DNA of 64,000 nt, from the NCBI GenBank assembly GCA_965208325.1, contig OZ242326.1, positions 1,696,001-1,760,000 on the forward strand. The letters are read 5' to 3'. A program made the position numbers and the translations under genes. Shown piece after piece: positions 7,411-61,271 of the stretch. The notes under the pieces were generated by a model, which was not told where the DNA came from, made no database searches, and worked only from the letters and a program-made list of their open reading frames with translations. The stretch's first letter is position 1. Each line of letters opens with the position of its first letter. The DNA is from Candidatus Poribacteria bacterium. GTDB lineage: Bacteria > Poribacteria > WGA-4E > PCPOR2b.

Positions 7411-7505
7411 GTAAGTAGCTCTCAAAAATCAAATGTCGCAGTGTTTTCGGTTAGGCTGAGACCGTACAATGTAATTGCTCAACACATTAATAGCGATTTC
7501 TGCGT

Positions 7506-7580
7506 TGTTTGAATCACGGACTGACACGGATTCAAAAATCCGCGTTATCTGCTACATCTGTTTAATCCGTGATTCGGACA
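7506..7580. repeat. TCTGAATC inverted-repeat pair upstream of the ATPase-TOPRIM gene
   Basis: tgtttgaatcacgga ... tccgtgattcggaca; same family as 5421-5521. Confidence 0.7.
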
Positions 7581-7641
7581 GTATTTTCATCCACAATCGC
7601 AATTTCTTCAGGGGTTGTAATAGGATTCGGTAGCAACATAA

Positions 7642-7680
7642 TAAAGGCGGCAGTAACCTCATTTCACTCTGCCGCCAAAA
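7642..7680. terminator. Possible bidirectional terminator hairpin
   Basis: aaaggcggcag-N15-ctgccgccaaaa; GC-rich stem with a large loop. Confidence 0.35.
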
Positions 7681-7789
7681 TCGAACGTCAATGTCCTCTG
7701 GTGTTCAGCACGTACAGAAAACCCTAAAAACAATCAATTGAGGATTTCATTCTTATGTCATCAATAGAATGAAAATATGTACGTGGGAA

Positions 7790-7993
7790 TTAAGGGGTAC
7801 CGCGTTTCTGGTCCTTTTCCCAATCCCTAGCACCGTCTTGTGTTGAGACATTCCCAACCTTCGTAACATGAACATCTTTTCCATATTCTCGTTGATGTTC
7901 TTTTTCACGGCGGTCGAGGTCCTTAGTAACACCGCTGCGAATAATTGTATTGCCTCGTTTCAAATGATACTTGTAGGTATCACGTGCACCCAT
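7790..7993 (-). CDS. 67-aa minimal GIY-YIG-like protein
   Basis: Strong RBS AAAGGGGG. TYKYHL...IIRSGVTKDLDRREKEHQ...ARDWE follows the YxYxL...GxTxDLxRRxxEH...AxxxE pattern of GIY-YIG nucleases. Confidence 0.65.
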   Translation of the reverse strand: MGARDTYKYHLKRGNTIIRSGVTKDLDRREKEHQREYGKDVHVTKVGNVSTQDGARDWEKDQKRGTP

Positions 7994-8212
7994 GGGTAGT
8001 TTCCCCCTTTCTCAAAAAGTAATGGTATATTAGCATCCCTGGATGACCGAATGCAAGGAAAAATGCATTTCGACTGCTATATATTGTGTAAAACTATGAA
8101 ATATACCCAACATATAGGAGATTTGGTCAGTCAGAAATGAATAAGAAGTTGACCTCAACTTTCACCAATCAAAACTTATTCTAGCCCATTCAAACTACCC
8201 ACTTTTTGTGAG

Positions 8213-8750
8213 TCATGCCTCTACAATCGCAATTTCTTCGGGGGTAAAGTCGTACAAAGAGTATACTATCTGGTCAGTCTCAATTTCAAGTTCGGATAAA
8301 TCCGCGTCCGGGGCAGCGCGTCTGGCGGCAAGGATTTGATCGGCGAGCACTACAGTCTGCTCGTGCGTTGCTCTGTCATTTGAAATATTAAAGTCGAGGT
8401 TGGAGATGGGGATCGCTTCAATTTCAGATTTTTTGATTTTGGGAAATAGCGTTTTGAAGTCAGAACTGTTTTTTATCCAGAACCATTTACCCAATTTGCC
8501 GTTTATGCTTCCACGTACATATTTCAATGAATATTTATCGTGCGAACCAATTAGATTAAATATTGTATTCAGAATGTAAAACTGTTCCCCGTCATGAGTA
8601 GCTATTGGAGTTCGTCCTATCTGGCGAATTACTATCTTCGGATTCAGAAAATACCTTTCATTTCTCTCGCGATGCAGCCAACTACCATATTGAACATGAA
8701 GCCCTTTCCAGTTTTTCTGGTAAGTAAACCTTTCCTCACGCCTACCGCTT
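8213..8750 (-). pseudogene. 3' remnant of an Eco57I/TaqI-like type IIG R-M gene (TaqI_C specificity domain)
   Basis: The frame extends upstream of the listed ORF as NWKGLHVQYGSWLHRERNERYFLNPKIVIRQIG... and ends DQIVYSLYDFTPEEIAIVE. It is closed by an in-frame stop near 8750, and no MTase part is present. Confidence 0.75.
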
Positions 8751-8868
8751 CACATGGCCGCATTAAAATCTTGACAGCGCTGATGAAATTATGCAAAGAT
8801 TGAGAATGTTCCCAATTTTGGCGTGGATTTTCTGGGGCTGAGTGGATAGGGATCAAGGGATAAAGGAT

Positions 8869-11808
8869 ATGCAGGCTGAAGACACCATCACGACCTACAT
8901 AGCAGATATTTTGCGCGAGCGTAGAAATACCTGGACAGTAGAACCCCAGTTGCCCTTGCTGCTCGAAACCAAACGCCCCGATATAACAGTATTTGAAACC
9001 GGTAGAGAACCAATAGTCATAGAGGTAAAAATTGACTATGCACATACGGCAAATTTGGATGGGGAAGAGCAAGCGAAAGGACGTCTCGGAGAATATGTGG
9101 CACCTTTTGAAATGCTAAAAACAGCCATGTCGTTACGAGTCCCCTATCGATTTCGAAAACTTAGTACCGCCGAAATCTCCGGCGCACTCCGCCGTGCCGA
9201 TGACTTCCGTTATGCCCTCTTCAGCATAGACGATCTTCACCGTACTACCAATCCGCACCGTTTTCCCAAAAACGGTTGGATCGCTGGAAATATGGGTGAC
9301 GTTGCCACCGCGCTCCGAATCGGTGCAATTCCCGTTTCCAAGGTTTCCGAAGCCGCGGAAGAATTAGAGCGCGGCGTAAATGAAGCCGCATCCCTTCTCG
9401 CCGAAACCGCAGAGTCACGTAGTCGCATCGCAGAAACCATTGAGGATATTCTTTACCAAAAAGCGGGCAAACAGACCTATCGGATGGCGATGTTAATAAT
9501 TACGAACGCCTTTGTGTTTCAGAGCGCCCTCGCTGGCACCCCGGAAATGGAAGAGGTACCATCCCTTAGTCAACTCAAGACTGTGGCGGAAAAACTTAGC
9601 CTCAATGAAGTCTTGGACGCATGGAACGCTGTTAAACAGGTTAACTACCGTCCAATTTTTGATGTTGCGTATCGTCTAACGGATGAGGTGCTCGCAACAG
9701 ATGATGCGTTAGTCGGCCAGGTGTTGCGGATTCTGCGTGACACCGCCCGACGACTAATCACGCGTCGTCTGGAACAGGTACATGAGTTAGCAGGTATCGT
9801 CTTCCAACGGTTGATTGTTGACCGTCGATTCATAAAGGCCAATTACACGCGCCCCGAATCCGTTGCCCTGCTTTCTGCTCTCGTCTTACCCAACGAACAG
9901 CCTACCGTAGGTGACGGGCTACGTACTTTCCCAAAGGTTGCCGATTTCGCCTGTGGCACTGGGGCGTTACTAAACGGTCTTTACCAACGGATTTTGTCGC
10001 TACATGAACAAGCTGGCGGTCGCGGCAAAGATATTCACCGGCAAATGGTAGAAGATAACCTTTTAGGGGCGGACATCATGCCCAATGCTAGCCACCTCAC
10101 CGCTTCAATAATAGCCAGTACCTATCCGGATGTTAAAATCGGCAAAACCCGCATTCATACCATGGAATACGGCACCCAAAGACGCGATGGACAATATTCT
10201 ATTGGGGCATTGGATTTACTTGAAAACCCGGAGGAAACCAATCCACTAGAGTTAGATCGTGCAAAAGTGTTATTTCGATCGAAGCAAGTTCAGGGTGACG
10301 ATCGCGACACCCCGGAATCCGAGTTTCGGCACGGTGAGTTTAATGTAATTGTCGAAAATCCGCCCTTTACGCGCACGGGCGCAGACACCAGTTCGCATAA
10401 TCCTGAAGTTCCAAAGACTGTGTTCGGAGATAGGACTGACGATGTTGCCGGCGAAATGAAAGCCGCGCTTAAAAGCATAAAAACGTCTATTGCACACAGC
10501 AATGCCGGTCTCGGTTCATACTTCGTAGACCTCGCGGATCGAATGCTAATGGATGGCAATCGAGATGGCTCCCCGTGGCCGCCTACAATGGGATTCGTCC
10601 TTCCCATTACTGTTCTAACCTCACCTGACTGGCAAAAAGTTCGAAAAATGTGGGCGGAAAAATACCACGGTGTAACTGTAGTCACCATCGCCGAAGCCAA
10701 AAGGGAAAACTGTGCCTTCTCTGCGGACACAAACATGGCAGAGTGTCTCGTCGTTGCAATCAAGGGCAGGACGGAAAGCACTGGTCGCGGAACCTTTGTC
10801 TGTCTCCGCCGCAGACCAGATAGCCATTTAGAAGCGGTTGAAACCGGCAAGCAAATTCAGAGTTTGCTAGAAGTCAGAAACCTCGAAGATCCGCCGATTG
10901 GTGGCAATTCTATCAAAGTGGGGGATGAACTTGTCGGGTCTGCTTTAAATTGTCCGTTGGACGAGATATGGCCCACTTCTCGAGTTAAAGACCTCGCATT
11001 GATGCAATGCGCATATCATTTAACAAATGGGTGTATTTGGTTTCCTGAACTGCAAAATCCTTTTGAAATTCCAGTCTGTTCTGTGGCGGATATTGCGTCA
11101 ACTAGTTTTGATGAAACGATGATTAAAGGGAAAAATGGTGCATTTGATATAGAACATGGGTGCGCGGACAATGATATGTATCCGGGGCTGTGGCACGTCA
11201 GTTCAGACAAGCAACGCACGATGGTGGTTGAACCGGACTCCCACGGAATAATTCGGTCCAATTCTTGGGCGAAAGCTCAACGAATTCTAGACAGGAACAG
11301 CCGTATCCACCAAAATATAGGTTTACAGTTCAACGCAAATTCATTATCGGTGCTCTTCACAGAGAGGCCCGCTATCGGTATCCGCTCCATGCCAAATGTT
11401 AAGTTTGAGAATCCGTCGCACGATTACCCATTTGCCGTGTGGGGCAACTCAACCCTGGGATTTCTGTGCTATTGGATGCGTAGCAACAGAGTGCAAGAGG
11501 GTCGAGGTGCAATTCGTTTGACACTTTTGCGTTCTATGCCGACGTTGGATGTGCGTCAATTGGACCAGACCGCATTGCAAAATGCCGAACATATTTTTGC
11601 GGAGATGAAGAACAAAAAGATGCTTCCGTTCAATCAGATGTACGAAGATACGGTGCGTCAGAAGTTGGATAGGCGGTTGTTGTCCGAGGTGCTTGGAATA
11701 TCTGAATCTACACATCCAGAGGTCTATACGGGCTTGCATCGCCTCCGTGAGCGATTGTGTGCGGAGCCGAGCATCCACGGCGGGAAGAAGTCGAAGGTAG
11801 TGCTATAA
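8869..11808 (+). CDS. Type IIG restriction-modification fusion (PD-(D/E)xK endonuclease, N6-adenine MTase, specificity domain)
   Basis: RPDI...IVIEVK nuclease motif, YTRPES, motif I DFACGTG, motif IV ENPPF, GFVLP; AAGGA RBS before ATG 8869. Confidence 0.85.
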   Translation: MQAEDTITTYIADILRERRNTWTVEPQLPLLLETKRPDITVFETGREPIVIEVKIDYAHTANLDGEEQAKGRLGEYVAPFEMLKTAMSLRVPYRFRKLSTAEISGALRRADDFRYALFSIDDLHRTTNPHRFPKNGWIAGNMGDVATALRIGAIPVSKVSEAAEELERGVNEAASLLAETAESRSRIAETIEDILYQKAGKQTYRMAMLIITNAFVFQSALAGTPEMEEVPSLSQLKTVAEKLSLNEVLDAWNAVKQVNYRPIFDVAYRLTDEVLATDDALVGQVLRILRDTARRLITRRLEQVHELAGIVFQRLIVDRRFIKANYTRPESVALLSALVLPNEQPTVGDGLRTFPKVADFACGTGALLNGLYQRILSLHEQAGGRGKDIHRQMVEDNLLGADIMPNASHLTASIIASTYPDVKIGKTRIHTMEYGTQRRDGQYSIGALDLLENPEETNPLELDRAKVLFRSKQVQGDDRDTPESEFRHGEFNVIVENPPFTRTGADTSSHNPEVPKTVFGDRTDDVAGEMKAALKSIKTSIAHSNAGLGSYFVDLADRMLMDGNRDGSPWPPTMGFVLPITVLTSPDWQKVRKMWAEKYHGVTVVTIAEAKRENCAFSADTNMAECLVVAIKGRTESTGRGTFVCLRRRPDSHLEAVETGKQIQSLLEVRNLEDPPIGGNSIKVGDELVGSALNCPLDEIWPTSRVKDLALMQCAYHLTNGCIWFPELQNPFEIPVCSVADIASTSFDETMIKGKNGAFDIEHGCADNDMYPGLWHVSSDKQRTMVVEPDSHGIIRSNSWAKAQRILDRNSRIHQNIGLQFNANSLSVLFTERPAIGIRSMPNVKFENPSHDYPFAVWGNSTLGFLCYWMRSNRVQEGRGAIRLTLLRSMPTLDVRQLDQTALQNAEHIFAEMKNKKMLPFNQMYEDTVRQKLDRRLLSEVLGISESTHPEVYTGLHRLRERLCAEPSIHGGKKSKVVL

Positions 11809-23745: not shown

Positions 23746-26157
23746 ATGACACAAAATCAGACAGATGGTTCCCAAAGCGCTATCAATTCCGGGAATCGGT
23801 TGTTTCCGCCCCACCTGCTACACGCCAGGTGGCACGAGTTTCAAGCTGAAGGGTATACCGAACCTGTGACCGGCGTAATTTATCGGGGCAATCCCCGTCC
23901 GACGTGCGGCATGCCGCTGGGCGGTCTCGATACCGGTTGTATTGACATCGAACCCAACGGTATGCTGGGTTACAGTACAATTTTTAATCATTTGGTCAAT
24001 CCCCGCCTGTTGCTAAACCTCCCCTTTTTGGGGTTACATTGCGACGAAAAAACCTGGGTGCTGGTTTCGGATACACTGGGTAAGGACTATACACCGAAGG
24101 ACAGCGAGTACGTAGCAACCTTCCCGCCAATCGACTACACTCCCCGATTCACCGATATTGAACTGGACGGAGTGGAAACCGCTGATTCCATCGACTATTG
24201 GGGGCATTACCCGATTGTTGACATGGAATTCAACACGAGCGCCGCCGTGGAAGTTGGACTGCGTGCATGGTCGCCTTTCATCCCCGGCGACACAGCCATT
24301 TCCATGGCGCCCGGCGCAGTATTTGAACTCACGGTGCGGAACCCTGGAAACGCGGGAAAAAATGGCACGCTCGCCTTCAGTTTCCCCGGTTTTGAACTAT
24401 CCGACGAAGAGAACTCTGAAGACTCAGTCCGCCGCGAAGCGCTGCAGGGTCAGTTGAACGGCTTGCATGTTGACAGCGGTGTAAAGGACGATGCCTGGGA
24501 AATGGCGTATGTCTTAGCGGCAATTGATGATGCCGTTCGCTGCGGCGGACCGCTGAATACAGACGGCGCCGCATGGGCTGGAATTGCCGACCAGCTTCCC
24601 GATGCCGGAGCGGGTGAAACCGGCGCGTCTCTGGCGTTCGATTTTAATCTCGATGCAGGCGAATCCAAAACCTACCGCTTCGTCCTTGCGTGGCACGCGC
24701 CGCACTGGAGAGCAGGAGGAGCGCCGTCGCATACGAATTCGAACCTGCTCACGCACATGTATGCCAAACACCACCCGGACGCAAAATCCACAGCAAATCT
24801 GTTAGCAAGCGACCCTGACTCGCTGCTAAAAAGAGTTATCTCTTGGCAGGAAGTCGTCTACCAAGACCCTACGATTCCGGGCTGGCTTGCAGATTCGTTA
24901 ATCAACAACCTTTACTTGATTCCCGAATGCAGCATCTGGGGTCAAGCCAAGGCGCCGATTGGCGACTGGTGCGATCCCGACGACGGCGTCTTCGGATTAA
25001 ACGAATGTCCACGAGGCTGTCCGCAAATTGAGTGCCTTCCGTGTAGTTTTTACGGGAATATACCGTTGGTCTACTTCTTCCCCGAAGCCGCCTTATCGAC
25101 CTTACGCGGGCAGAAGGCATACCAATACGAGGACGGACGGCCGCCCTGGATATTTGGCGGTGTCACCGCCATTGAGGAAGGAAACCGGCCGCCTTACGAA
25201 CTAAGTAAACCCGATGTCGGCTACCAGACCGTACTGAACGGCGCGTGCTACATTATTATGGCGGACCGGATATGGCGCGCCTCCGGAGATGATGGTATGC
25301 TGGAGGAATTCTGGGATTCCCTTAAGCGTTGCAACGATTTCTCAATGAATTTGCGGCCAGCCTACGGACTGTCGCAGGTCATTTCAATGCCAACCCCCGG
25401 TACCGACTCACACGGCCTAGGCGACACGGAATGGTTTGAAGCGCCCGAACCCGGCTGGAAAGGGTATGTGACGCATGCCGGGGCAGTACGGCTTGCCCAA
25501 GTGCAAATCATGTACCGTATGGCGGAGGCAATGAACGATCATGAATATCTCAAGAAGTGCGGCGATTGGATTGAAGCTGGGGAAGCGGCGCTAGAAGAGC
25601 ACCTCTGGGCAGGCGAGTATTATCTGAACTTCAATGAGCCGGAAACCGGCCAGAAGTCCGATTTAATCTTCGGCTATCAGCTTGACGGCCAGTGGATTAC
25701 CGACTGGCACGGGGTACCCGGTGCGTTTCCCAAGGATCGGGTGGATCAAACGCTTGAGACGCTCCGGAAATATAACTGTGCGCTCAGCCAGTCAGGCGCT
25801 CTCAACTACGCGAGTGCAGATGGGCAGCTTGCCAATGTAGGCGGTTACGGGACCTATAGCTATTTCCCACCGGAATTATACATGCTTGCCATGACCTACA
25901 TGTACGGCGGGCAGCAAGATTTTGGTCTTGAACTGCTTCACAAATGTATGAACAACATCATCTGTCGGTGGGGTTATACTTGGGATATGCCGAACACGGT
26001 ACGCGGCGATGCCGACACCGGGCAAATGGCGTTTGGCGCCGATTACTATCAAAATATGATGCTCTGGGGTGCGCCGGCGGCGATTGCAGGGTCAGATCTC
26101 ACGGGACCGTGCCAACCCGGCGGGCTCGTGGACCGCGTCATCCAAGCCGGCAAGTAA
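23746..26157 (+). CDS. GH116-family glycoside hydrolase (GBA2-like)
   Basis: GMPLGGLDTG, YWGHYP, RAWSPFIPGD, FGYQLDGQW; N-terminal beta domain plus (alpha/alpha)6 domain. Confidence 0.8.
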   Translation: MTQNQTDGSQSAINSGNRLFPPHLLHARWHEFQAEGYTEPVTGVIYRGNPRPTCGMPLGGLDTGCIDIEPNGMLGYSTIFNHLVNPRLLLNLPFLGLHCDEKTWVLVSDTLGKDYTPKDSEYVATFPPIDYTPRFTDIELDGVETADSIDYWGHYPIVDMEFNTSAAVEVGLRAWSPFIPGDTAISMAPGAVFELTVRNPGNAGKNGTLAFSFPGFELSDEENSEDSVRREALQGQLNGLHVDSGVKDDAWEMAYVLAAIDDAVRCGGPLNTDGAAWAGIADQLPDAGAGETGASLAFDFNLDAGESKTYRFVLAWHAPHWRAGGAPSHTNSNLLTHMYAKHHPDAKSTANLLASDPDSLLKRVISWQEVVYQDPTIPGWLADSLINNLYLIPECSIWGQAKAPIGDWCDPDDGVFGLNECPRGCPQIECLPCSFYGNIPLVYFFPEAALSTLRGQKAYQYEDGRPPWIFGGVTAIEEGNRPPYELSKPDVGYQTVLNGACYIIMADRIWRASGDDGMLEEFWDSLKRCNDFSMNLRPAYGLSQVISMPTPGTDSHGLGDTEWFEAPEPGWKGYVTHAGAVRLAQVQIMYRMAEAMNDHEYLKKCGDWIEAGEAALEEHLWAGEYYLNFNEPETGQKSDLIFGYQLDGQWITDWHGVPGAFPKDRVDQTLETLRKYNCALSQSGALNYASADGQLANVGGYGTYSYFPPELYMLAMTYMYGGQQDFGLELLHKCMNNIICRWGYTWDMPNTVRGDADTGQMAFGADYYQNMMLWGAPAAIAGSDLTGPCQPGGLVDRVIQAGK

Positions 26158-27925: not shown

Positions 27926-30900
27926 CTATTTCACGATGACCATCCGCTTCACCGAAGTAAAGTCGCCGGCCCGGAGTTGATAGAAATACAGTCCGCTCGC
28001 AACGCGCTCTCCGGTCTCGGATTTTCCGTCCCAAAACGCCGCACGTTCCCTATCAATGTAATAACCCGCCCTCTGATGTCCCAATTTCAATTGGCGAACA
28101 ATTGCGCCGTCGGAGTCATAAATTGAAATTTCCACCGATGCATCGGACGCCAATTGATAAGGGATCCACGTTTCCGGATTGAACGGATTCGGGTAGTTGG
28201 GCAAGAGTCTAGTTTCAGTAGCGGCACTTTTGCGCTGCGTTAACCATGCGAGCAGAAGATTACGCGCGGTAACTGCCGCCGGCGATGGATTGGTGAGCGC
28301 TCCCAATTCGGCGAGTGCGCCTTGAATCGCAGCAATCCCGTCTACTGCGAGCGGTCCCGGATGTGGAATTTGTGGAAGTGTAGAAAAGATACCCCGCACA
28401 TTGCTCGGCGCAGACGGCGCCGCTATGTTTTCGCCGAGCCGTTCGCTGATTCGAATTAGATCATCGACATCAACGGTTCCATCCCTGTTGACATCGGCTG
28501 CAGGGTTTTTGGGCGGCGTCTGCCCGAATTGCATACCGGCAATAACCAAGTCGGCGACATCAATGACACCGTCCGCATTGACATCTTCAGGATTGGCCGC
28601 ATCTTGAGGAACCGTTTGTGTCCGTTCTATGAAGTCGGCGTATGACATTGCGCATCGAAAACCGCCGAGATGAATGCGAAAATCCGGGGTGCTGACGTGG
28701 TTGTCACGATGGGCGCATCGGGTCACGTGTCTTTTATTCATCCAACATGCCCCGCGGAACGCGCGGTGTATCCCGAACGCTGGTCCCTGTGGGTTATTCC
28801 ACTCCGTTAGCGAAGAATAATAGGCATGATTATACCAATCTGAAACCGATTCCCAGACATTGCCGACCATATCCAGCGCTCCGTACGGACTTGCGCCGTC
28901 GGGGAAACTTCCGACAGGCGTGGTTGTCCGGGGCCCAAGTTCCAAGGAATTCAAGCGTGTGGGGTCCCATTCATTCCCCCAAGGGAATATCCGGGCGTCC
29001 GTGCCTCTTGAGGCTTTTTCCCATTCGGCTTCTGTCGGCAATCGTTTCCCCGCCCATTTTGTGTATGCGACTGCATCATTGTAGCTCACTTGGACCACCG
29101 GATGATTCATTTTGTCCCGAATGGTGCTTCCGTGCCCAAGCGGCGCCCTCCAGTTTGCGCCCTGGATTTGAGGCCAAACGTTGCCGCCCTCCCATACAAA
29201 TCCCCAGTTTTCCCTTTCAGCGTCGGTGATGTAACTGGTCGCATTCACAAATTTTTCAAACTGCGCGTTCGTCACCTCAAATTTGTCGATGTAAAAGGCG
29301 TCCAAATATACCGTATGCTGCGGCTGTTCATGCTTGAAAAGTTCTCGGAGTGCGGGATTACGCCGCGTAATTTCATCAAGTTGCGAATCACTCGTGCCCA
29401 TAATGAACTCGCCTTCGGGCACGAGCACCATGGTTGAATCGTCCTTTTGGTGGGTGATTTCAGTCAGGGGACCATCGTGGATAACGGTGTCAAGCGCGGG
29501 AAGATGCATAGATGCTCCCGTTCCGCTGTAGAACGGAATCTCTGCATTAACCGGACTGTTATTAAAATTTGCGACTATCCAACGATCAGATTCCTCGGTC
29601 ACCAATTTTACCGCCTTGACGAGACTATCGCTCGTAGCTAACCACTGAAGTTTGTCCACCATGCTTCGTGCCGCATCCCTGTCGCCGCTGATTAAGAGAT
29701 AACTGCCCTCTCGAACAATATCGCCTTGTTCGTATTCCCCCGCTCCCAATCGCGGATTCGATGCCAGGACGTAATCGATCCGTTCACTTATCTGTCCATT
29801 CCAAAGGTTTCTCTTTCCGGGTCGAATCCTAAATGCGCCATTGTTGCGCACGCTGATGATTCCTAGTTTGTCGTCGATGTTTATCCATGCTGAATCAATT
29901 GTGATATCCTCGCCCGGGCTGCTCCCAGCCGACAACCTTACCGTGTCGCCCGCAGAATATATTTGCCTCTGGTTATCGTTAAAGATGTCGTTCGGCAAAT
30001 GGTAAGTCAAACCGGCTTGCGCGGATACTGTAATTGCTTCGCGCGCCACGAGATATTCCATCATTATCGCGGTTCCGTCCTCGGGCAACGCCGTAAAACT
30101 TATGTAGTGGTCTAAACCGTCTGTATTGCCGCGCCTCCCCTCTCTTAAATGCCCTGTAGCGATGAAACCTCCTTCAATGAAGCGCTCATTATGATGTAGG
30201 AGTAAAGGGGGCGCGTCCGTATCTTTAATAAATACATTGCCGATGAAATTTCCTCTTGCCCATTCCACCATGTTGTCGTCTCCAGGCACAAATAAAGCCA
30301 TTGGATAGTGTCCTGACAGATGCTGCCAACTGAATGACACAAACAGGTTTTCTGTGCGTGTGTAGAGATACTGGCAAAATTCGCTGTGAAAACTGCCTTC
30401 CACCTTTTTCCGAAAAGTGTAAAAGTTTTCGGCGCTTATTGTGGGCGAGAATTGGTGGAGCAGATAGGCTAACCCCATATTCGCGTAGCCATCTGTTTCG
30501 TAGATAAGGGGCCATCCCTGGCGTTGATTTGCGAACCGTGCCCCGAAAATACTCCCGCCGCTGTTCTGTTGCTGCTCCCACGAGAGAGCGCGAAAGCGGA
30601 GTTGTTCGATGAGCCGTGCGTCGGAGTCGCCGAGTTCATTTTCCAACAGTACTAAGGCAGGAATGATAAAGTAAGGCCCGTAGACGTGCCGCCCCCAATC
30701 CTTGCCCTGAAAATAGGCAAAACGTCCGGAAAAAAGATGTGTGCGCTTTAGCGTATCCCAAACATCGGTGAGATGATGGAAAAGAGTTTGTGGCACTGGC
30801 TGTCCGTTGCTAACGAAAGCGTAGTATGCCCAAGCGAGCGAGTGCAGCGGAACCGCAATATAGTCAAACTGATAGGCGCCGTGTCCTTCCAGTGTGAAAT

Positions 30901-31747
30901 CCGGATGCGCGTTTGTTGTATTTACCCATTCATTAACCGGTTTTCCATCGACTACTGTGGTGTCGTTGGAATCCGCCTCAACCGAAAAGGTGTTCATGAA
31001 CAACTCTTGCGCTTTCGATAGCCACCTTTCTGCATTGGGGTGGTTTGGATACAGGCTGGCTGCCCAAGCGAGTACCTCGGCGTTCAAGGCGTTGAGTTCA
31101 GCTTGGGTGTCTTCGTATTCACGGGAAAACACCCGGTTTCCTAACTGAAAATCCGCTTCATGAACAACGACGCGCCGAATGGCATCAGTTTCCTCTTGGG
31201 TTAACTCATCCCAAATCAGGCGCGCCCCAGCCACAGCTTTAGAAATGACCCATGGCGACAACCACTGATGCGGCTGCGCCCCCCACTTTTCGCCGTCCGT
31301 ACAGACGATGCCGCCGGTGACGTGCGTCGCCGTAAAATATCGAAGCGCCGCCCGGACACGATTCAAAAGCGTCTCTCGACTGATTTGCGGTGCAGTACGA
31401 TTTCCTCCCGTTTCCGCAGCCAACAACCCGTATACGAAGATAAAATTAGCCAGTACGCGCATCTGATTGTGATCGTGCACGCCGTTGCTGAAATATCCGA
31501 GCTGGGAATCGCCCTGATAGCCGCTATGCCATTCTGATTCTGCGTAGGTCGGGAACCGTTCTAGAAATGCAATGTAATCCGCATGATTGGGAAAGTCTGC
31601 ACTTGGGTAAAAATGCTGAATCGGCGGGATAGCCCAAAGATTGAAGGGAAAGCCAAGTAGAGATGCTAGTAAAACAACTAAGATGGTAGGTAGTTTAGCA
31701 TGAGACGATTTACAGCAGGTGGTGCCGGTTCTCTTCAAAGATTGCAT
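27926..31747 (-). CDS. Large secreted multidomain protein: lyase-like helical/beta region, FGE-sulfatase (SUMF1) domain, dockerin-like EF-hands and FlgD-Ig/T9SS-like C-terminal domain
   Basis: FGE motifs KFEVTN, RLPTEAEWE, DMVGNVWE and GFRC; EDVNADGVID and ADVNRDGTVD; NYPNPFNPETWIPYQLA. The N-terminal ~750 aa is assigned only tentatively. Confidence 0.75.
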   Translation of the reverse strand: MQSLKRTGTTCCKSSHAKLPTILVVLLASLLGFPFNLWAIPPIQHFYPSADFPNHADYIAFLERFPTYAESEWHSGYQGDSQLGYFSNGVHDHNQMRVLANFIFVYGLLAAETGGNRTAPQISRETLLNRVRAALRYFTATHVTGGIVCTDGEKWGAQPHQWLSPWVISKAVAGARLIWDELTQEETDAIRRVVVHEADFQLGNRVFSREYEDTQAELNALNAEVLAWAASLYPNHPNAERWLSKAQELFMNTFSVEADSNDTTVVDGKPVNEWVNTTNAHPDFTLEGHGAYQFDYIAVPLHSLAWAYYAFVSNGQPVPQTLFHHLTDVWDTLKRTHLFSGRFAYFQGKDWGRHVYGPYFIIPALVLLENELGDSDARLIEQLRFRALSWEQQQNSGGSIFGARFANQRQGWPLIYETDGYANMGLAYLLHQFSPTISAENFYTFRKKVEGSFHSEFCQYLYTRTENLFVSFSWQHLSGHYPMALFVPGDDNMVEWARGNFIGNVFIKDTDAPPLLLHHNERFIEGGFIATGHLREGRRGNTDGLDHYISFTALPEDGTAIMMEYLVAREAITVSAQAGLTYHLPNDIFNDNQRQIYSAGDTVRLSAGSSPGEDITIDSAWINIDDKLGIISVRNNGAFRIRPGKRNLWNGQISERIDYVLASNPRLGAGEYEQGDIVREGSYLLISGDRDAARSMVDKLQWLATSDSLVKAVKLVTEESDRWIVANFNNSPVNAEIPFYSGTGASMHLPALDTVIHDGPLTEITHQKDDSTMVLVPEGEFIMGTSDSQLDEITRRNPALRELFKHEQPQHTVYLDAFYIDKFEVTNAQFEKFVNATSYITDAERENWGFVWEGGNVWPQIQGANWRAPLGHGSTIRDKMNHPVVQVSYNDAVAYTKWAGKRLPTEAEWEKASRGTDARIFPWGNEWDPTRLNSLELGPRTTTPVGSFPDGASPYGALDMVGNVWESVSDWYNHAYYSSLTEWNNPQGPAFGIHRAFRGACWMNKRHVTRCAHRDNHVSTPDFRIHLGGFRCAMSYADFIERTQTVPQDAANPEDVNADGVIDVADLVIAGMQFGQTPPKNPAADVNRDGTVDVDDLIRISERLGENIAAPSAPSNVRGIFSTLPQIPHPGPLAVDGIAAIQGALAELGALTNPSPAAVTARNLLLAWLTQRKSAATETRLLPNYPNPFNPETWIPYQLASDASVEISIYDSDGAIVRQLKLGHQRAGYYIDRERAAFWDGKSETGERVASGLYFYQLRAGDFTSVKRMVIVK

Positions 31748-31920
31748 CAAGTGCTCCAAAATTTTATGCGCTAATCGGCTTATTCTTGCATATATGCCCA
31801 ATAAAGTCAAGAATGGAATTCGGCTGTGTAGGTTTGCGCAGCGCAATCATGGACGATATTATTTAATGGTGATCGTGCACTCATAGGATTTGCCGCAATT
31901 CCCGATGCGCCAATCCCAAC

Positions 31921-41017: not shown

Positions 41018-41914
41018 TCACGAAAATCTGATGAAAAACGGCTGTGTCCACGCCATGCGTCCGCCGGCGCCGTAGCATTCCGCGCGGATATATCCCAACT
41101 GCGCGGCATCGTCCGGGCTTTCCGGTAGTGTGAATGTAGCTTCAGGGGCATTGACAGTGGAACGGATGACGCCGGCGTTACTGATGAAACGGATTCGCTG
41201 CGCATCTTCAGTTTCTACATGCACCGTTGTACCTTCCGCACCGACGCGGGTGACTGTGACACCAGTAGAGCCGTAGAAACTGCCGGCTTTGAGCGCCGAT
41301 GTAATGTCTTCAACCGTGCAATTTTCTGTCTGTACCATGTTCCAAGCCAGTTCAACGTCGATCGGGAGGTGCGAATCGTCGTGCGCAAATCCCCAAATAG
41401 TGCGTCCCATTGTCAGCAAGCGATCCCACCGATCAGTGGCTATTGCGACGCCGGGCAGGCGTTCAATGACGCCGTTGTAGATTTCGATGCCGTGGTAGCG
41501 ATTGAGGGACTCCATCTGTTCCTGTGGAAAATGATTAAAGTGCGCTTCAAAGTTCGGGTGGTTCAGCACACTCACGCCGCCCTGTTTGTTGATTTCGTCG
41601 ATAACCCACTGTCGATTTGGGTGCGGCTCAATCCAGGCTTCCGCGTTGACCTGCAAAACATGGGGACCTCGCGCCGTCACTTCAACCGCCGGGATAAGCG
41701 TCATGGAGGTCTCTTTCTGAAAGCCATCGAGTTTAACCAACACGTCGTGATCCGAGATAGCCAAGAAATCGTAACCTCGGCTATCGTAGTCGGCAATTAC
41801 CGCTTCGGGCGGACGAGAGCCGTCGCTGCGGGTTGTATGGGTATGCAGGTTGCCGCGGAACCAGTTTGAAGCCCCTGTGTAGCTGCTCTTTAGCTGGATA
41901 CCGTTATTTGACAT
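41018..41914 (-). CDS. PHP-domain metallohydrolase (CehA/McbA-like)
   Basis: GNLHTHTTRSDG, ISDHD, LNHP, DDSH. Confidence 0.9.
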   Translation of the reverse strand: MSNNGIQLKSSYTGASNWFRGNLHTHTTRSDGSRPPEAVIADYDSRGYDFLAISDHDVLVKLDGFQKETSMTLIPAVEVTARGPHVLQVNAEAWIEPHPNRQWVIDEINKQGGVSVLNHPNFEAHFNHFPQEQMESLNRYHGIEIYNGVIERLPGVAIATDRWDRLLTMGRTIWGFAHDDSHLPIDVELAWNMVQTENCTVEDITSALKAGSFYGSTGVTVTRVGAEGTTVHVETEDAQRIRFISNAGVIRSTVNAPEATFTLPESPDDAAQLGYIRAECYGAGGRMAWTQPFFIRFS

Positions 41915-42017
41915 TTTTGACTCCTTCTTCGCAAGACATACAGACATGTCCGCGATTAGTTCAAACAAACCTTTTAAACTTACTGGCCACTGGACACTGG
42001 CCGCTGATTCTGCGGTT

Positions 42018-43244
42018 TCAATCTAAGGAAGCGTAATATTCAACGATGACCTGCCACGCCTTCTCGCTCATGAATCCGTCGGGCGGGGATTCGCCGTTCC
42101 GCGCGTATTCACGCATCTGCGAACCTGAAACGAAAAGAAAATCCGGGGCGCGGTTGGGTTCAAAAAAGCCCATACTGCCCGCGGCTTTGTCATAAGCCGC
42201 GACGCGGAAAGGGACGATTTTCAGGCGTTCTAGTCCAACCGCCGCCTGTAACGCCTTCACTCCGTGCCAGGGATCGTATAACGGGGCGGACTTGCCGCCG
42301 GAGTCCAGCCGCTCTGGATGCAGCATGCCTGCCGGGTCCCGCCCGACGATGTAGTAATCCGCGCCAGCGTTCATCCGCGCCTTCGCATGCCACTGCACCT
42401 CGGTTGGACCGGCGTAAAGCATCGGACTAGGAAAAATCGAGACGACTGTCGTGTCCGCATCCAGAACACCGTCTTCCAGAACTGCGTCGTGTTGGCGCAT
42501 CCGCACCTGCAACGGCACATCGTCGGCTTTTGTCCAACCGCCGAGTGGATGGAGCAGGAGCATCGGGTTTTGATATCCCTGTTTTTTTAGCTCGTCCCGG
42601 GTCTCGTTCATCAACAGCGCATGACCGTTGTGAATGGGGTTGCGGAGTTGAAACGCATAGACAACATCCGCACCGCGCCGTTTGAATTCGGCGCGAATTT
42701 CCGCAGGACTCAAGCGATATTGATCCAGACCATCGTTGTAGGTGATTCGATCAAAAACTTCGAGTTCCCCGCCGACAAGGTAATTCCCCATCGCATTGAT
42801 TCTCTCGATACTCGGGTGTGCAGGGTGGGTTAAACCGAATGTCCGTGCTGCCCGCTCCTCTTTTGGGTGCGGGTAAAACTCCGGGTCACGTAAGATTGCA
42901 ACGGCATTTCCTTCGGTGTTAACCAGCGCCACTGCTTTCTGATTTTTCAAACGGTTAAAATTGTCGGTAGAAACGTCTAGCGTAATCGGAATGGACATAT
43001 TCACACGCGTCCCGTCGTGCTGGCGTAGGCAGTTAAAATGAAGCGTCTGCAAAAATTCATCTTCGCGCATAAACCCGCGAAGCGGGCTCGCCCATCCTTC
43101 GCTGAGGACATGTACCCACTGGACATCGTAATCGGTAACCGGAAGTTTTGGACGGTCTGTTGCTTCGGCACGTTTTTTTACCCGTTGATTGTCGGGTACG
43201 ATTAAGTCTACTAGAGCACCGCCGTCTGGTGCAATTAAGGACAT
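42018..43244 (-). CDS. sat: Sulfate adenylyltransferase (ATP sulfurylase), plant/metazoan type
   Basis: SEGWASPLRGFM, FQLRNPIHNGHALLM, LHPLGGWTKADDVP, YAGPTEVQWHAKAR, VGRDPAGM. Confidence 0.95.
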   Translation of the reverse strand: MSLIAPDGGALVDLIVPDNQRVKKRAEATDRPKLPVTDYDVQWVHVLSEGWASPLRGFMREDEFLQTLHFNCLRQHDGTRVNMSIPITLDVSTDNFNRLKNQKAVALVNTEGNAVAILRDPEFYPHPKEERAARTFGLTHPAHPSIERINAMGNYLVGGELEVFDRITYNDGLDQYRLSPAEIRAEFKRRGADVVYAFQLRNPIHNGHALLMNETRDELKKQGYQNPMLLLHPLGGWTKADDVPLQVRMRQHDAVLEDGVLDADTTVVSIFPSPMLYAGPTEVQWHAKARMNAGADYYIVGRDPAGMLHPERLDSGGKSAPLYDPWHGVKALQAAVGLERLKIVPFRVAAYDKAAGSMGFFEPNRAPDFLFVSGSQMREYARNGESPPDGFMSEKAWQVIVEYYASLD

Positions 43245-43345
43245 ATTTTCTCCTCATGATGAGTAAATTTTGGCATGGTATTCAGGTACAATTTGGGACG
43301 ATTATATCACAATTGCGAGATTGAAGTCGAGGCTATTAAATTGTG

Positions 43346-58814: not shown

Positions 58815-61271
58815 TCAGAGGTTATCAACGTCGTTTTGACGCTTTCCGGCCGCCTGAATAATACGGTCAACCAACCCGTTCGATGCGCAGAACGCAGAAA
58901 TGTCCTTGCCCTCCATAGCCGCCGGCAACGCCCAAAGCATCAAGTTCTGAACATAGTGCGCACCAAACAACCGGTCGCCGTTATCGCCGCGTACGAGATT
59001 CGGCAAGTTCCAGGTAGACAGCGTGTTGATGGTAAGATTATGAATACACCGGCGCGCCAGTTCCAGGCCAAAATCCTTATCCCCCTCGTACATGTAAGTC
59101 ATCGCAAGCATGAACAGCTCGGGCGTGAAATAGGCAGTTGGGCCATATCCCAAACCCTGGGAAAGACTTCCGTCTGGACGAGAAAAATTCAATGCGCCAT
59201 AGGGGGTCAACGCCGCGCAAGTGTTTTTGATTGTCTCCAGAGTTTCCTTGACTCGGTCCGATCGAAAAACGCCCGGCAACCCGTGGAATCTTGCCATCCA
59301 CTGCCCGTCAAGTTGATACCCAAATACATCATCTGATTTTCGGCCGGTTTTGGGCTCATTGTAGCTCAAGTAATATGACCCTGCCCACATCTTGTCTTCC
59401 ATCGATTGACTCCCTTGCTCAAGCCAATCTTTGCATTGCCGGGCAAACTCGTCATCACCTACCTGCTCTGCCAGCCGTAGCGCCATTCTCAAATTCGCTA
59501 GGTGGATGCCTCCCACGTGGGATGTCATCCCAAACCACAATACCGCTTCAAACCATTCGAGGTGGTGTCCCGGCGGCTGATTAGGTCCGTACGGATCCAA
59601 ATTCCCACTCGGTACACTGATGATACCGTCGGCGCCATCCTCTGGCCTGAGGTTCATCGTGTAGATTGTATTTTTCTTAATGGATGGGTAGAACTCTGCA
59701 AGGATTCCCTTGTCGCCCGTGCGGAGCAGGTATCGGTCAACTAAATCAACGTAGCACGGCCCATTGGTCGTCGTCTGATATCCCGGTGTTGGCATCGCAA
59801 ACTCGGCGCCCATCGTCGGCTCGTAGCCGCCTATAGCAGCGCCCACAACGCCGCCAAATATCCACGGCGCTGCGCCATTCGCAAACTGGTAGGCTTTGTA
59901 GCCGCGCAGCGTTGAAAGGGCGAGATCGGGGAAAAAGAAAACGAGAGGTGCATTGGCGTAAAAGGTGTCGGGGATAGGCTCAACGGCTGGATTCTCCGTG
60001 ATCCCATCAATCAGCCCAAACAGCCCTTCCTCCGGGTGACACCACGGTCCAATCGGAGGGCGCGCCGCTGCCCACAGGCCGTTGATAGCGAATAGGTGAA
60101 GTATATTTATCAGCGAATCTTGGAGCCAATTCGGGAGGTTCGCCTCCGTATAGATAACCTCCTGCCACGCTAGGACGCGCCGCAAAAGAGAGTCGTGTTC
60201 GCGGCTTAGAAATTGAGCCGCATCAAGGGCACTCTTGTACCGGGTAGTGTACATGTGCGTGAATGTGTGCGGACCTTCTCCTATCCACATGGGCGCATAC
60301 CATGCAAGCACAAACCGAACGACTTTTTCCTCTCCCGGCGGCAGTTGGTAGCCGACGGAAATCGAACCGCTAAAGTCCGTTTCACCGGGTTCGGGAAGTT
60401 CAGAGCCAATTTTCGCCCAAGCTTTACCGCTGCTCATAGACGGGCTCCGAATCGCCAATCCGCCGCCGATTTCGATTTCCGCCTCACCAACTACACCGAG
60501 TGCGTAGCCGATTTCTGGAACCTTTTCCGATGTAACAACCAACCCGGTAAATTCTCCGTGTACGGTTTGCCGCTCCGCCTTCACCGGTTCCGGCGCAAGT
60601 GCAATCCACGTATGGCCGTACGGCATCCGTGCTTTTTCACGCGGGCTGTGCGCTTCAATCTGGGCTTCAGCCTGGGTCGGTCCAGGAAAACTGAAAGCTA
60701 ATCGCCCCTCCTGCGCCGTGTCCGTCACATTTCGGAGATGTACTTCAAACACGATTCCGGGAGTGTTGGTGGCGCCAGAGTCTCCGGGGAGAAACGGCAC
60801 CCAGGCGCGCAGTCCAACATTGACAGGCGATCCCGGCATCTCGTATTCCAGGTCCGCCACGGGATAATGACCCCAATAATGGATTTCACGCGGCGTTTGG
60901 ATGCCAAACCACATGTAACCGCCGTACGCTTCCCGTGGATCGCTAAGCAACCAGACCTGTTCACCTACTGTCATGCCAAGAAACGGCAGTTCCAGCGGAC
61001 CGCCTTCGGGACAGATGGAGTTAAAAATCGTGCAGTATCCGAAGGTTGCATCCGTGTTCAAATCGAGTCGTCCTGTGTCAATCCCGCCTAAAGGCATCCC
61101 GTTCTCGATTCGCTGTTTGCGTCTGTATATCACCCCGCATGCAGGTTCGCTAAATCCGTCCGCCGGGAATTGTGACCACTCAAGCACCGGTGCATCTGTA
61201 GAAAAAAGCCTCCGGTTGTTCCGATGACCGGAATTTCCTCCGTGCATACCCGCTATTGCAGTTGTGTTCAC
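58815..61271 (-). CDS. GH116-family glycoside hydrolase, paralog of 23746-26157
   Basis: GMPLGGIDTG, YWGHYP, RAWVPFLPGD, FGYQLDGQW. Confidence 0.8.
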   Translation of the reverse strand: MNTTAIAGMHGGNSGHRNNRRLFSTDAPVLEWSQFPADGFSEPACGVIYRRKQRIENGMPLGGIDTGRLDLNTDATFGYCTIFNSICPEGGPLELPFLGMTVGEQVWLLSDPREAYGGYMWFGIQTPREIHYWGHYPVADLEYEMPGSPVNVGLRAWVPFLPGDSGATNTPGIVFEVHLRNVTDTAQEGRLAFSFPGPTQAEAQIEAHSPREKARMPYGHTWIALAPEPVKAERQTVHGEFTGLVVTSEKVPEIGYALGVVGEAEIEIGGGLAIRSPSMSSGKAWAKIGSELPEPGETDFSGSISVGYQLPPGEEKVVRFVLAWYAPMWIGEGPHTFTHMYTTRYKSALDAAQFLSREHDSLLRRVLAWQEVIYTEANLPNWLQDSLINILHLFAINGLWAAARPPIGPWCHPEEGLFGLIDGITENPAVEPIPDTFYANAPLVFFFPDLALSTLRGYKAYQFANGAAPWIFGGVVGAAIGGYEPTMGAEFAMPTPGYQTTTNGPCYVDLVDRYLLRTGDKGILAEFYPSIKKNTIYTMNLRPEDGADGIISVPSGNLDPYGPNQPPGHHLEWFEAVLWFGMTSHVGGIHLANLRMALRLAEQVGDDEFARQCKDWLEQGSQSMEDKMWAGSYYLSYNEPKTGRKSDDVFGYQLDGQWMARFHGLPGVFRSDRVKETLETIKNTCAALTPYGALNFSRPDGSLSQGLGYGPTAYFTPELFMLAMTYMYEGDKDFGLELARRCIHNLTINTLSTWNLPNLVRGDNGDRLFGAHYVQNLMLWALPAAMEGKDISAFCASNGLVDRIIQAAGKRQNDVDNL

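Follow-up and report, generated by a model that had tools for sequence, protein, structure and literature searches.

We analyzed a 64,000-nucleotide stretch of DNA from a sponge-associated Candidatus Poribacteria bacterium (assembly GCA_965208325.1, contig OZ242326.1, positions 1,696,001 to 1,760,000; hereafter the window). Its reverse strand carries a gene for an ATP sulfurylase (ATPS; sulfate adenylyltransferase) of the plant/animal type, the clade to which the ATPS domain of metazoan 3'-phosphoadenosine 5'-phosphosulfate (PAPS) synthase belongs. Other known members of this family come from streptophytes, glaucophytes, red algae, animals (in which ATPS forms the C-terminal half of PAPS synthase) and further eukaryotes. 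The open reading frame (ORF) starts with ATG, encodes 408 residues with zero internal stop codons and lies at C1:1738021-1739244 in genome coordinates. A Pfam scan of the 408-residue protein returned two domains only, PF14306 (PUA_2; residues 4-165, 157.4 bits) and PF01747 (ATP-sulfurylase; residues 174-403, 219.3 bits), and did not find PF01583, the adenosine 5'-phosphosulfate (APS) kinase domain. The general ATPS model of NCBIfam, TIGR00339, matched with 371.6 bits (cut-off 322.95). Among all PDB chains, soybean ATPS (4maf) was the top match (565.4 bits, E 6.5e-169). Human PAPSS2 and PAPSS1 scored 501.8 and 494.5 bits in their ATPS domains, and bacterial, archaeal and fungal chains all stayed at or below 152.8 bits, the best of them being the bifunctional SAT/APS kinase 2gks. 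The likeness of the protein to plant and animal enzymes far exceeds chance. The genes and sites at the locus are the following (window positions):

42018..43244, reverse strand: ATPS, monofunctional, 408 residues, from the plant/animal (PAPS-synthase-type) clade (ORF, Pfam, TIGR00339, PDB match, trees)
43250..43255, reverse strand: Shine-Dalgarno-like GAGGAG, 5 nt before the ATPS start codon (read from the sequence)
43301..43330, reverse strand: promoter-like TCGACT, 18-nt spacer and TATAAT after TG (consensus scan, 10/12 matches; weak evidence only)
41018..41968, reverse strand: CehA/McbA-family (PHP-like) metallohydrolase, downstream of ATPS (NF038032, 114.8 bits; cut-off 80)

The promoter scan gave 2 sites in the region against 2.5 expected from shuffled sequence, which is not above chance, and neither was the outcome of a terminator scan around the gene.

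The translation contains LIAPDGG, QWVHVLSEGWASPLRGFMREDEFLQTLHFN, FQLRNPIHNGHALLM, LHPLGGWTKADDVPL, IFPSPMLYAGPTEVQWHAKARMNAGA, GRDPAGM, PFRVAAYDK and PPDGFM. An earlier reading of the DNA alone (the original prediction) had taken these eight strings as signatures of the plant and animal enzymes, distinct from those of typical bacterial and fungal ATPS (Sat), and both the strings and the distinction were borne out. Ordinary homo-oligomeric Sat of bacteria, archaea and fungi (NF003166/PRK04149) belongs to the same fold family (PF14306 plus PF01747), and catalyzes the same reaction at the same point of sulfate assimilation. However, its signature residues are FQTRNP.HRAHE, YAGPREA and GRDHAG, and an ordinary Poribacterial Sat (locus L021) shows FQTRNPIHRAHE, YAGPREA and GRDHAG. 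The protein encoded in the window is only 27-35% identical to ordinary Sat and scored 217.7 bits with the bacterial Sat model NF003166, below its cut-off of 387. The heterodimeric ATP sulfurylase CysD/CysN, made up of the PP-loop subunit CysD and the GTPase CysN, is unrelated to it.

The catalytic motifs are intact, with QLRNP at residues 199-203, HXXH as HNGH at 205-208 and the GADYYIVGRDPAGM loop. QLRNP, HNGH and the GRDPAG loop (301-306) are invariant in 9/9 aligned bacterial members of the plant/animal-type clade. FQLRNP.HNGHALLM and the PP-loop pattern G..Y/F.IVGRDPAGM are common to the bacterial, streptophyte, glaucophyte, red-algal and animal rows of the alignment, while 'other eukaryote' rows in which ATPS is fused, and the outgroup, have FQTRNP at the FQLRNP position. 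The account of ATPS in PMC9578213 names HXXH and the PP-loop GANFYIVGRDPAGM as conserved motifs, and Arg248, Asn249, His255 and Arg349 as transition-state residues of the soybean enzyme. The Poribacterial QLRNP, HNGH and GRDPAG-loop motifs correspond to the plant HXXH and PP-loop motifs and to these soybean residues.

The closest architectural match is with the plastidic/cytosolic enzymes of plants, soybean ATPS and Arabidopsis ATPS1-4, which are likewise monofunctional two-domain proteins of ~400 residues. The alignment with 4maf runs end to end, from residue 3 to residue 407 of the Poribacterial enzyme, and since query residue 3 pairs with chain residue 2, there is no N-terminal extension. 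Both enzymes have FQLRNP.HNGHALLM, LHPLGGWTK, YAGPTEVQWHAKAR and GRDPAGM. Plant ATPS is a homodimer according to the description in PMC4220642. In contrast to the plant enzymes, the Poribacterial one has neither a transit peptide nor an N-terminal extension, is encoded in a bacterial chromosome behind a ribosome binding site, and has a 6-residue insertion after HPE, HPERLDSGGKSAP. This insertion is present in g1 (the genus of the source genome), in g3, in f9 (a family of another order) and in Latescibacteria-like sequences; it is missing from f4 (a family of the same order), plants, red algae, glaucophytes and vertebrates. Human PAPSS1/2 share the same catalytic motifs and fall in the same clade (100/100), with 494-502 bits for their ATPS domains, but the Poribacterial protein lacks the N-terminal APS-kinase domain, the kinase being a separate gene 630 kb away. 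Identity is 62-65% to plants (streptophytes), 64-66% to glaucophytes and 47-58% to animals. Thus, the earlier claim that the enzyme is more plant-like than animal-like holds for sequence identity.

The ATPS is a resident bacterial gene, and contamination and chimerism are excluded for practical purposes. The source genome is one contig of 4,707,648 bp (95.6% completeness, 1.6% contamination). Three close g1 relatives (85-96% identity) are complete Candidatus Poribacteria chromosomes that carry the ATPS and its neighbors, namely the CehA/McbA-like hydrolase gene downstream and genes for a xylose-isomerase-like TIM-barrel protein, an alcohol dehydrogenase and a PhyH dioxygenase upstream. Contigs of 13,064, 39,967 and 16,169 bp from three further independent sponge-metagenome studies span the ATPS and both flanks, bridging both ends of the gene. 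At least part of a 4-kb stretch at the ATPS is held by 20 listed runs from 12 studies, many of them labeled sponge metagenome; no RNA run is among those listed. The composition of the gene is native and fully ameliorated: its GC content of 0.546, third-position GC content (GC3) of 0.586 and codon-usage distance of 0.154 lie inside the spread of the 38 window genes (means 0.520, 0.554 and 0.182). Plant/animal-type ATPS genes also have bacterial neighbors at nine other loci. Eukaryotic contamination or a chimeric assembly join would have to explain all of this, together with the bacterial ribosome binding site, and its probability is negligible. Several statements of the original prediction were confirmed in this way: the absence of an intron (an uninterrupted ORF of 408 codons), of a transit peptide (4maf alignment) and of an APS-kinase domain (Pfam), the GAGGAG site, the bacterial neighbors, and the dismissal of contamination, no chimeric join having been found at either flank.

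We surveyed 176 genomes of the phylum Poribacteria, including the source genome, for the gene. Plant/animal-type ATPS was present in 12 of them (66-100% identity, E <=2.5e-188): all four g1 genomes, the g3 genome G005, 6/7 genomes of family f4, and G057 of family f9. Ordinary Sat alone was found in 157 (28-35% identity), zero match to the ATPS in 7, and two matches in 0/176. The two forms are mutually exclusive, and interchangeable in the genome, across the 169 genomes with a match: each has one or the other but never both. Ordinary Sat itself comes in two kinds. The common type occurs in the deeper families; the other, on a very long branch (stem ~1.8-2.0 changes/column), occurs in most genomes of the order that includes the source genome (L033, L036, L037, L078-L082; families f1-f3). 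With NF003166 (cut-off 387), a Sat of the former kind (type A) scored 563.1 bits and one of the latter (type B) 385.7 bits. By sequence, then, the phylum holds three Sat types.

Public protein collections contain further bacterial members of the plant/animal type, 401-419 residues long. In two of these clusters, a Tara-sourced member occurs alongside NCBI records with the name 'sulfate adenylyltransferase [Candidatus Poribacteria bacterium]', and several of the proteins are named 'PAPS synthase' by JGI. Four more clusters form a sister group, in which MBI4552748.1 is recorded as 'MAG: sulfate adenylyltransferase [Candidatus Latescibacteria bacterium]' (MAG, metagenome-assembled genome). A metagenome scan for the gene context of this Latescibacteria-like form returned 5 bacterial loci, all f4-like Poribacteria. 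Other metagenome loci (L096, L127, L139, L151) and 26 added ORFs look eukaryotic. One of them, L127, carries at 6296-8185 an intronless 629-residue fusion of APS kinase and ATPS; long ORFs are sparse on its 128-kb contig. The ATPS half of the fusion shares 52-56% identity with the PAPS synthase rows from vertebrates and insects and 49% with one from a nematode, and the owner is probably an intron-poor eukaryote.

The history of the gene within Poribacteria was compared with that of LepA, using a single-gene tree of 32 rows from a quick search. Family f4 was basal in the order (91 SH-aLRT), g1 was sister to g2 (91), which has ordinary Sat, and g3 fell elsewhere; from these positions, the holders of plant/animal-type ATPS are scattered in the order. 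The ATPS gene tree had the topology (f9, (f4, (g3, g1))) with every node at 96 or more (60-row tree, see below). Over 15 genome pairs, ATPS identities of 66-85% paralleled LepA identities of 72-90%, and the long-branched ordinary Sat behaved likewise (71-91% vs 72-93%, 10 pairs). Both Sat types are therefore old in the order, as each diverges in step with LepA. Within-Poribacteria divergence of the plant/animal type reaches down to 65% identity. These comparisons indicate that it is an old resident, not a recent acquisition, and to account for its scattered pattern, either the two Sat types coexisted for long and were lost differentially, or exchanges took place early. A search for LepA at E <=1e-50 gave no match in G057 and G044-G048 (f5, f6, f7, f9; 73-95% complete), nor did one with its specific C-terminal part at E <=1e-20 in G045 and G057, which reflects either a search miss or true gene absence. 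Because LepA was not found in G057 and G045, f9 is absent from this species tree.

One case shows replacement in place. In G005, the ATPS is followed by an alcohol dehydrogenase (ADH)-like and a Lar_N gene, which are 74-75% identical to the pair that follows ordinary Sat in G038 (f3). Between the ADH-like genes of G005 and G108 (f2), the latter likewise downstream of ordinary Sat, identity is 64.6%. Since these downstream genes match, one Sat type replaced the other in the same slot. The view of the ATPS as a peculiarity of a single genome, or as a recent capture, did not survive these comparisons, which place it in an old lineage found in 12/176 Poribacteria and in the group with the Latescibacteria-labeled member.

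For phylogenetic placement, all ATPS trees were computed under LG+C20+F+G4 with posterior mean site frequencies (PMSF). The 60-row set includes 18 bacterial and 30 eukaryote rows; the 49-row set omits 11 long-branched fused eukaryote rows from it, and the 80-row set adds 26 metagenome eukaryote ORFs and drops 6 near-duplicates. Named rows include the glaucophytes Cyanoptyche, Cyanophora and Gloeochaete, the red algae Cyanidioschyzon and Erythrolobus, and a nematode. P0133 and P0137 (long branches), P0006, partial 'short' representatives, duplicates and many plant sequences were excluded. Note that P0006, a 595-residue 'hypothetical protein' of Cocos nucifera, scored 789 bits, above other plants, yet is 57% identical over 81% of the query, which suggests a duplicated or mis-joined ATPS gene model.

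The Poribacterial ATPS did not branch with ordinary bacterial Sat but fell inside the plant/animal-type clade with support of 100/100 in both the 60-row and the 80-row careful trees. The bacteria formed one clade (99/95 with 60 rows, 96/88 with 80 rows). Judged from these trees, membership in the plant/animal-type clade and in a single bacterial clade is solid. In the 60-row tree, ten long-branched fused rows branched first, and the bacteria lay within a group of streptophytes, glaucophytes, red algae and animals (92/93) in which their sister was unresolved. In the 80-row tree, they were nested among eukaryotes at 91/92, as sister to the glaucophytes (92/88; 93% of 200 bootstrap trees). All eukaryotes together were recovered in 0/200 bootstrap trees in either set.

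Of the possible sources, a recent one in the sponge host is unlikely. By this account, a PAPS synthase passed from the sponge to its symbiont and then lost its kinase half. Such a capture could draw on the sponge-metagenome-labeled runs from several studies that hold the locus and on the fact that the trees contain no sponge sequence (the named rows in a profile search with animal PAPS synthases were vertebrates, nematodes and one wasp, with no sponge-named row). In approximately unbiased (AU) tests, run on the 60-row set, a clade of bacteria plus animals was not formally rejected (p-AU 0.092). However, this clade costs 14.7 log-likelihood units (lnL) and occurred in 0/200 bootstrap trees, and the lower identity to animals than to plants and glaucophytes argues against it as well. 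Furthermore, the ATPS is also common in clusters with Tara-sourced members and in the cluster holding NCBI Poribacteria records, its members within Poribacteria differ down to 65% identity, in step with LepA, and its composition is native. We consider a recent sponge origin very improbable.

The direction of the ancient event is a harder matter. We favor transfer from a eukaryote to a bacterium, with a probability of roughly 0.55. The ATPS would then be an ancient xenologue, and one inter-domain transfer would have seeded the bacterial lineage. The donor would most likely have been an early alga-like eukaryote, glaucophytes being nearest in the best-sampled tree. The resulting lineage would now reside in some Poribacteria and in the group with the Latescibacteria-labeled MAG; within Poribacteria, its inheritance would reach back about as far as the order itself. 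It excludes ordinary Sat and, in at least one case, occupies the same chromosomal slot. Ancient transfer of a core enzyme from eukaryote to bacterium is a rare kind of event.

Several observations weigh against this direction. The sisterhood with glaucophytes appeared in just 26% of bootstrap trees with the 60-row set, and most of the eukaryote rows added to the 80-row set are metagenome ORFs without names. Holding the 30 eukaryote rows together costs only 5.10 lnL and was not rejected (p-AU 0.296). When the fused rows were removed, the 49-row careful tree was rooted inside the bacteria, as (Poribacteria order, (f9, (Latescibacteria-like, eukaryotes))), with the nested eukaryote clade at 74/86 and the other nodes at 69/83 and 67/92. 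The stem of the outgroup is very long (~2.7-3.5 changes/column), and any root is therefore fragile. The fused, stramenopile-like rows at the base conflict with accepted eukaryote relationships and may reflect long-branch attraction. As to signature columns for rooting, two favor bacteria plus crown eukaryotes and zero favor either alternative, but we gave them no weight, because the species tree of eukaryotes requires homoplasy there anyway.

Some of these observations are those expected if the bacteria came first, that is, if the Poribacteria/Latescibacteria-like genes are native and represent what survives of a prokaryotic lineage that was sister to, or the source of, the PAPS-synthase-type ATPS of eukaryotes. 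Such bacteria would have passed the enzyme to the eukaryotic stem, or the two would share descent from a common donor now lost. Besides the 49-row topology and the p-AU value for eukaryote monophyly, the short bacterial branches fit this course of events, as do the unfused state of the bacterial genes, which they share with the outgroup, and the presence of the ATPS both in f4, basal in the order by the single-gene LepA tree, and in f9 of another order. By the measure of LepA divergence, the ATPS has been in Poribacteria for as long as can be traced, and bacterial origin is the common pattern for eukaryotic metabolic enzymes. Yet the careful trees with full sampling nest the bacteria in the eukaryotes (92/93, 91/92) and never held the eukaryotes together in bootstrapping, and the bacteria group with glaucophytes in the densest set. 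With 49 rows, the bacterial paraphyly is weakly supported; a tree in which the bacteria were held together equaled the careful tree and beat the quick tree, the latter being a local optimum. The range of the gene is also narrow, comprising 12/176 Poribacteria and one further group, with no deeper prokaryotic branches noticed among the best 150 representatives. Specifically, no prokaryote-looking, full-length, unfused row at 40-60% identity was noticed among the best 150 of 1.84 billion cluster representatives; judged by length and N-termini, the rows above ordinary Sat (<=38% identity) in these 150 seem to belong to the plant/animal-type clade. We regard a bacterial origin as a serious alternative, though less probable than transfer from a eukaryote. 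The two possibilities named in the original prediction, eukaryote-to-bacterium transfer and a bacterial clade related to the source of the plant enzyme, thus both survive, and the trees cannot decide between them because the root is unstable.

Either way, an old, diverse and monophyletic bacterial branch implies either an ancient transfer from eukaryotes or a prokaryotic source of the eukaryotic enzyme, and makes the origin of eukaryotic ATPS testable with sequences now in hand. If the bacteria were first, they would for the first time tie the origin of sulfate activation and sulfation in eukaryotes to a concrete prokaryotic lineage. The Poribacterial ATPS is a prokaryotic member of a known enzyme lineage, and its interest is evolutionary: the bacterial host widens the taxonomic range of a clade that had been described as eukaryote-only since 2008, not the definition of the enzyme. 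The phylum moreover offers a natural experiment in non-orthologous (xenologous) displacement, in which two to three unrelated-looking Sat types swap one-for-one across 169 genomes, once in the same slot. As an intronless, untargeted bacterial version of a plant-type enzyme, the protein should also be easy to express for comparative enzymology.

Bacterial sequences of the plant/animal type were already deposited and routinely annotated, and KEGG-style 'PAPS synthase' labels, such as the JGI names, can mislead metabolic reconstructions of sponge symbionts. We found no published report of the plant/animal affinity of this gene in a search of the full-text literature, supplementary tables being outside its scope. 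In the relevant section of Patron et al. 2008 (PMC2275785), plant and animal ATPS form one eukaryote-only lineage of unknown origin, and the corresponding passages of Prioretti et al. 2014 and of a 2024 review again note how similar the plant and animal enzymes are, with no bacterial members mentioned. Of two papers on Poribacteria genomics, Kamke 2014 has zero occurrence of 'sulfate' or 'sulfur', and the portion of PMC8546597 on the subject states that Poribacteria have assimilatory sulfate reduction and says nothing more about it. The same section of Patron et al. 2008 describes transfer of a eukaryotic ATPS to cyanobacteria (marine Synechococcus/Prochlorococcus). As described there, this case is a precedent for a eukaryotic ATPS that moved into a restricted set of bacteria and took over from the enzyme already there, but it concerns another ATPS clade (chlorophyte/chromist/fungal-related), unlike the Poribacterial one.

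With regard to function, the gene very probably encodes a functional ATPS in the sole sulfate-activation role. We infer the catalytic activity and metabolic role of the enzyme from its sequence. The predicted reaction is ATP + sulfate -> APS + pyrophosphate (PPi). The ATPS is the 1 match to PF01747 in the source genome, and a search there for CysD gave two weak PF01507 matches, neither of which fits CysD models; CysD/CysN was not found. Because neither CysD/CysN nor a second Sat was found, the ATPS should carry all sulfate activation. Its product, APS, would enter cysteine synthesis through a sulfonucleotide reductase and a sulfite reductase, both unlinked to the ATPS. The genome encodes a candidate for the former at C1:22019-22561 (a 252-residue reductase; NF002537, 219 bits), with the cysteines EYCCHVRKV and SLGCIICT, a CC plus CxxC pattern that we take to be that of iron-sulfur APS reductases, and a sulfite reductase with two NIR_SIR repeats. 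APS would also feed an unlinked APS kinase making PAPS for sulfation; one Sulfotransfer_3 gene is present.

The APS kinase gene lies at C1:1107592-1108209 (L013:1417-2037), 630 kb from the ATPS. In the PDB ranking, Arabidopsis APK1 scored 251.8 bits with this kinase, the human chain 219 and bacterial chains 168 or less. Nearly all genomes of the order have the same type (66-100% identity), as do G047 and G057, and deeper families have a more distant one (E 1e-48 to 1e-53). In a quick tree of 30 rows (7 bacterial), the kinase was on the eukaryote side of a split with 95 SH-aLRT. Its nearest Atlas clusters were Pseudomonadota, the Atlas look-ups giving family-level matches only, and a protein search returned Poribacteria-like kinases only (120/120 among the matches listed). 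A eukaryotic origin of the kinase was considered and is not established, since the bacterial CysC subfamily model NF003013 fits at 303 bits, including the N-terminal extension.

Adjacent to the ATPS in the window lies the CehA/McbA-like gene. No terminator-like site was seen between the two genes in the scan. In the three g1 relatives and in G030 of family f4 (L040 7029-7919, 62% identity), the gene after the ATPS is a close orthologue of this hydrolase gene (62-95% identity), while five other genomes have only CehA/McbA-like paralogues of 30-42% identity, far from their Sat. The two genes may form a co-transcribed, co-inherited unit. An assignment of the hydrolase as a phosphatase of 3'-phosphoadenosine 5'-phosphate (pAp) was rejected, as the 3',5'-nucleoside bisphosphate phosphatase model gave 32.1 bits against a cut-off of 400.

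A different arrangement was found in G057 (L042, G057:C356, 5872-10578). There, the ATPS (7312-8535) is directly upstream, on the same strand, of genes for a type I phosphodiesterase/nucleotide pyrophosphatase (8561-10003) and an ordinary prokaryote-type APS kinase (9985-10578), with an FGE-sulfatase gene upstream on the opposite strand. A further APS kinase in G057 belongs to the order-wide type. The arrangement of ATPS, phosphodiesterase and APS kinase points to PAPS synthesis. The earlier remark that no cysC or cysH is adjacent to the ATPS is right for the source genome, in which kinase and reductase are unlinked; in G057, an APS kinase gene is near.

Sponge-associated Poribacteria are reported to be rich in carbohydrate-related and sulfatase genes. 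Elsewhere in the window, the reverse strand encodes a 1306-residue protein that has an FGE-sulfatase domain and is FlgD-Ig-like at its end (27926-31846), and two GH116 glycoside hydrolases are encoded at 23746-26157 (forward strand) and 58815-61271 (reverse strand); the sulfatase and GH116 genes fit this picture.

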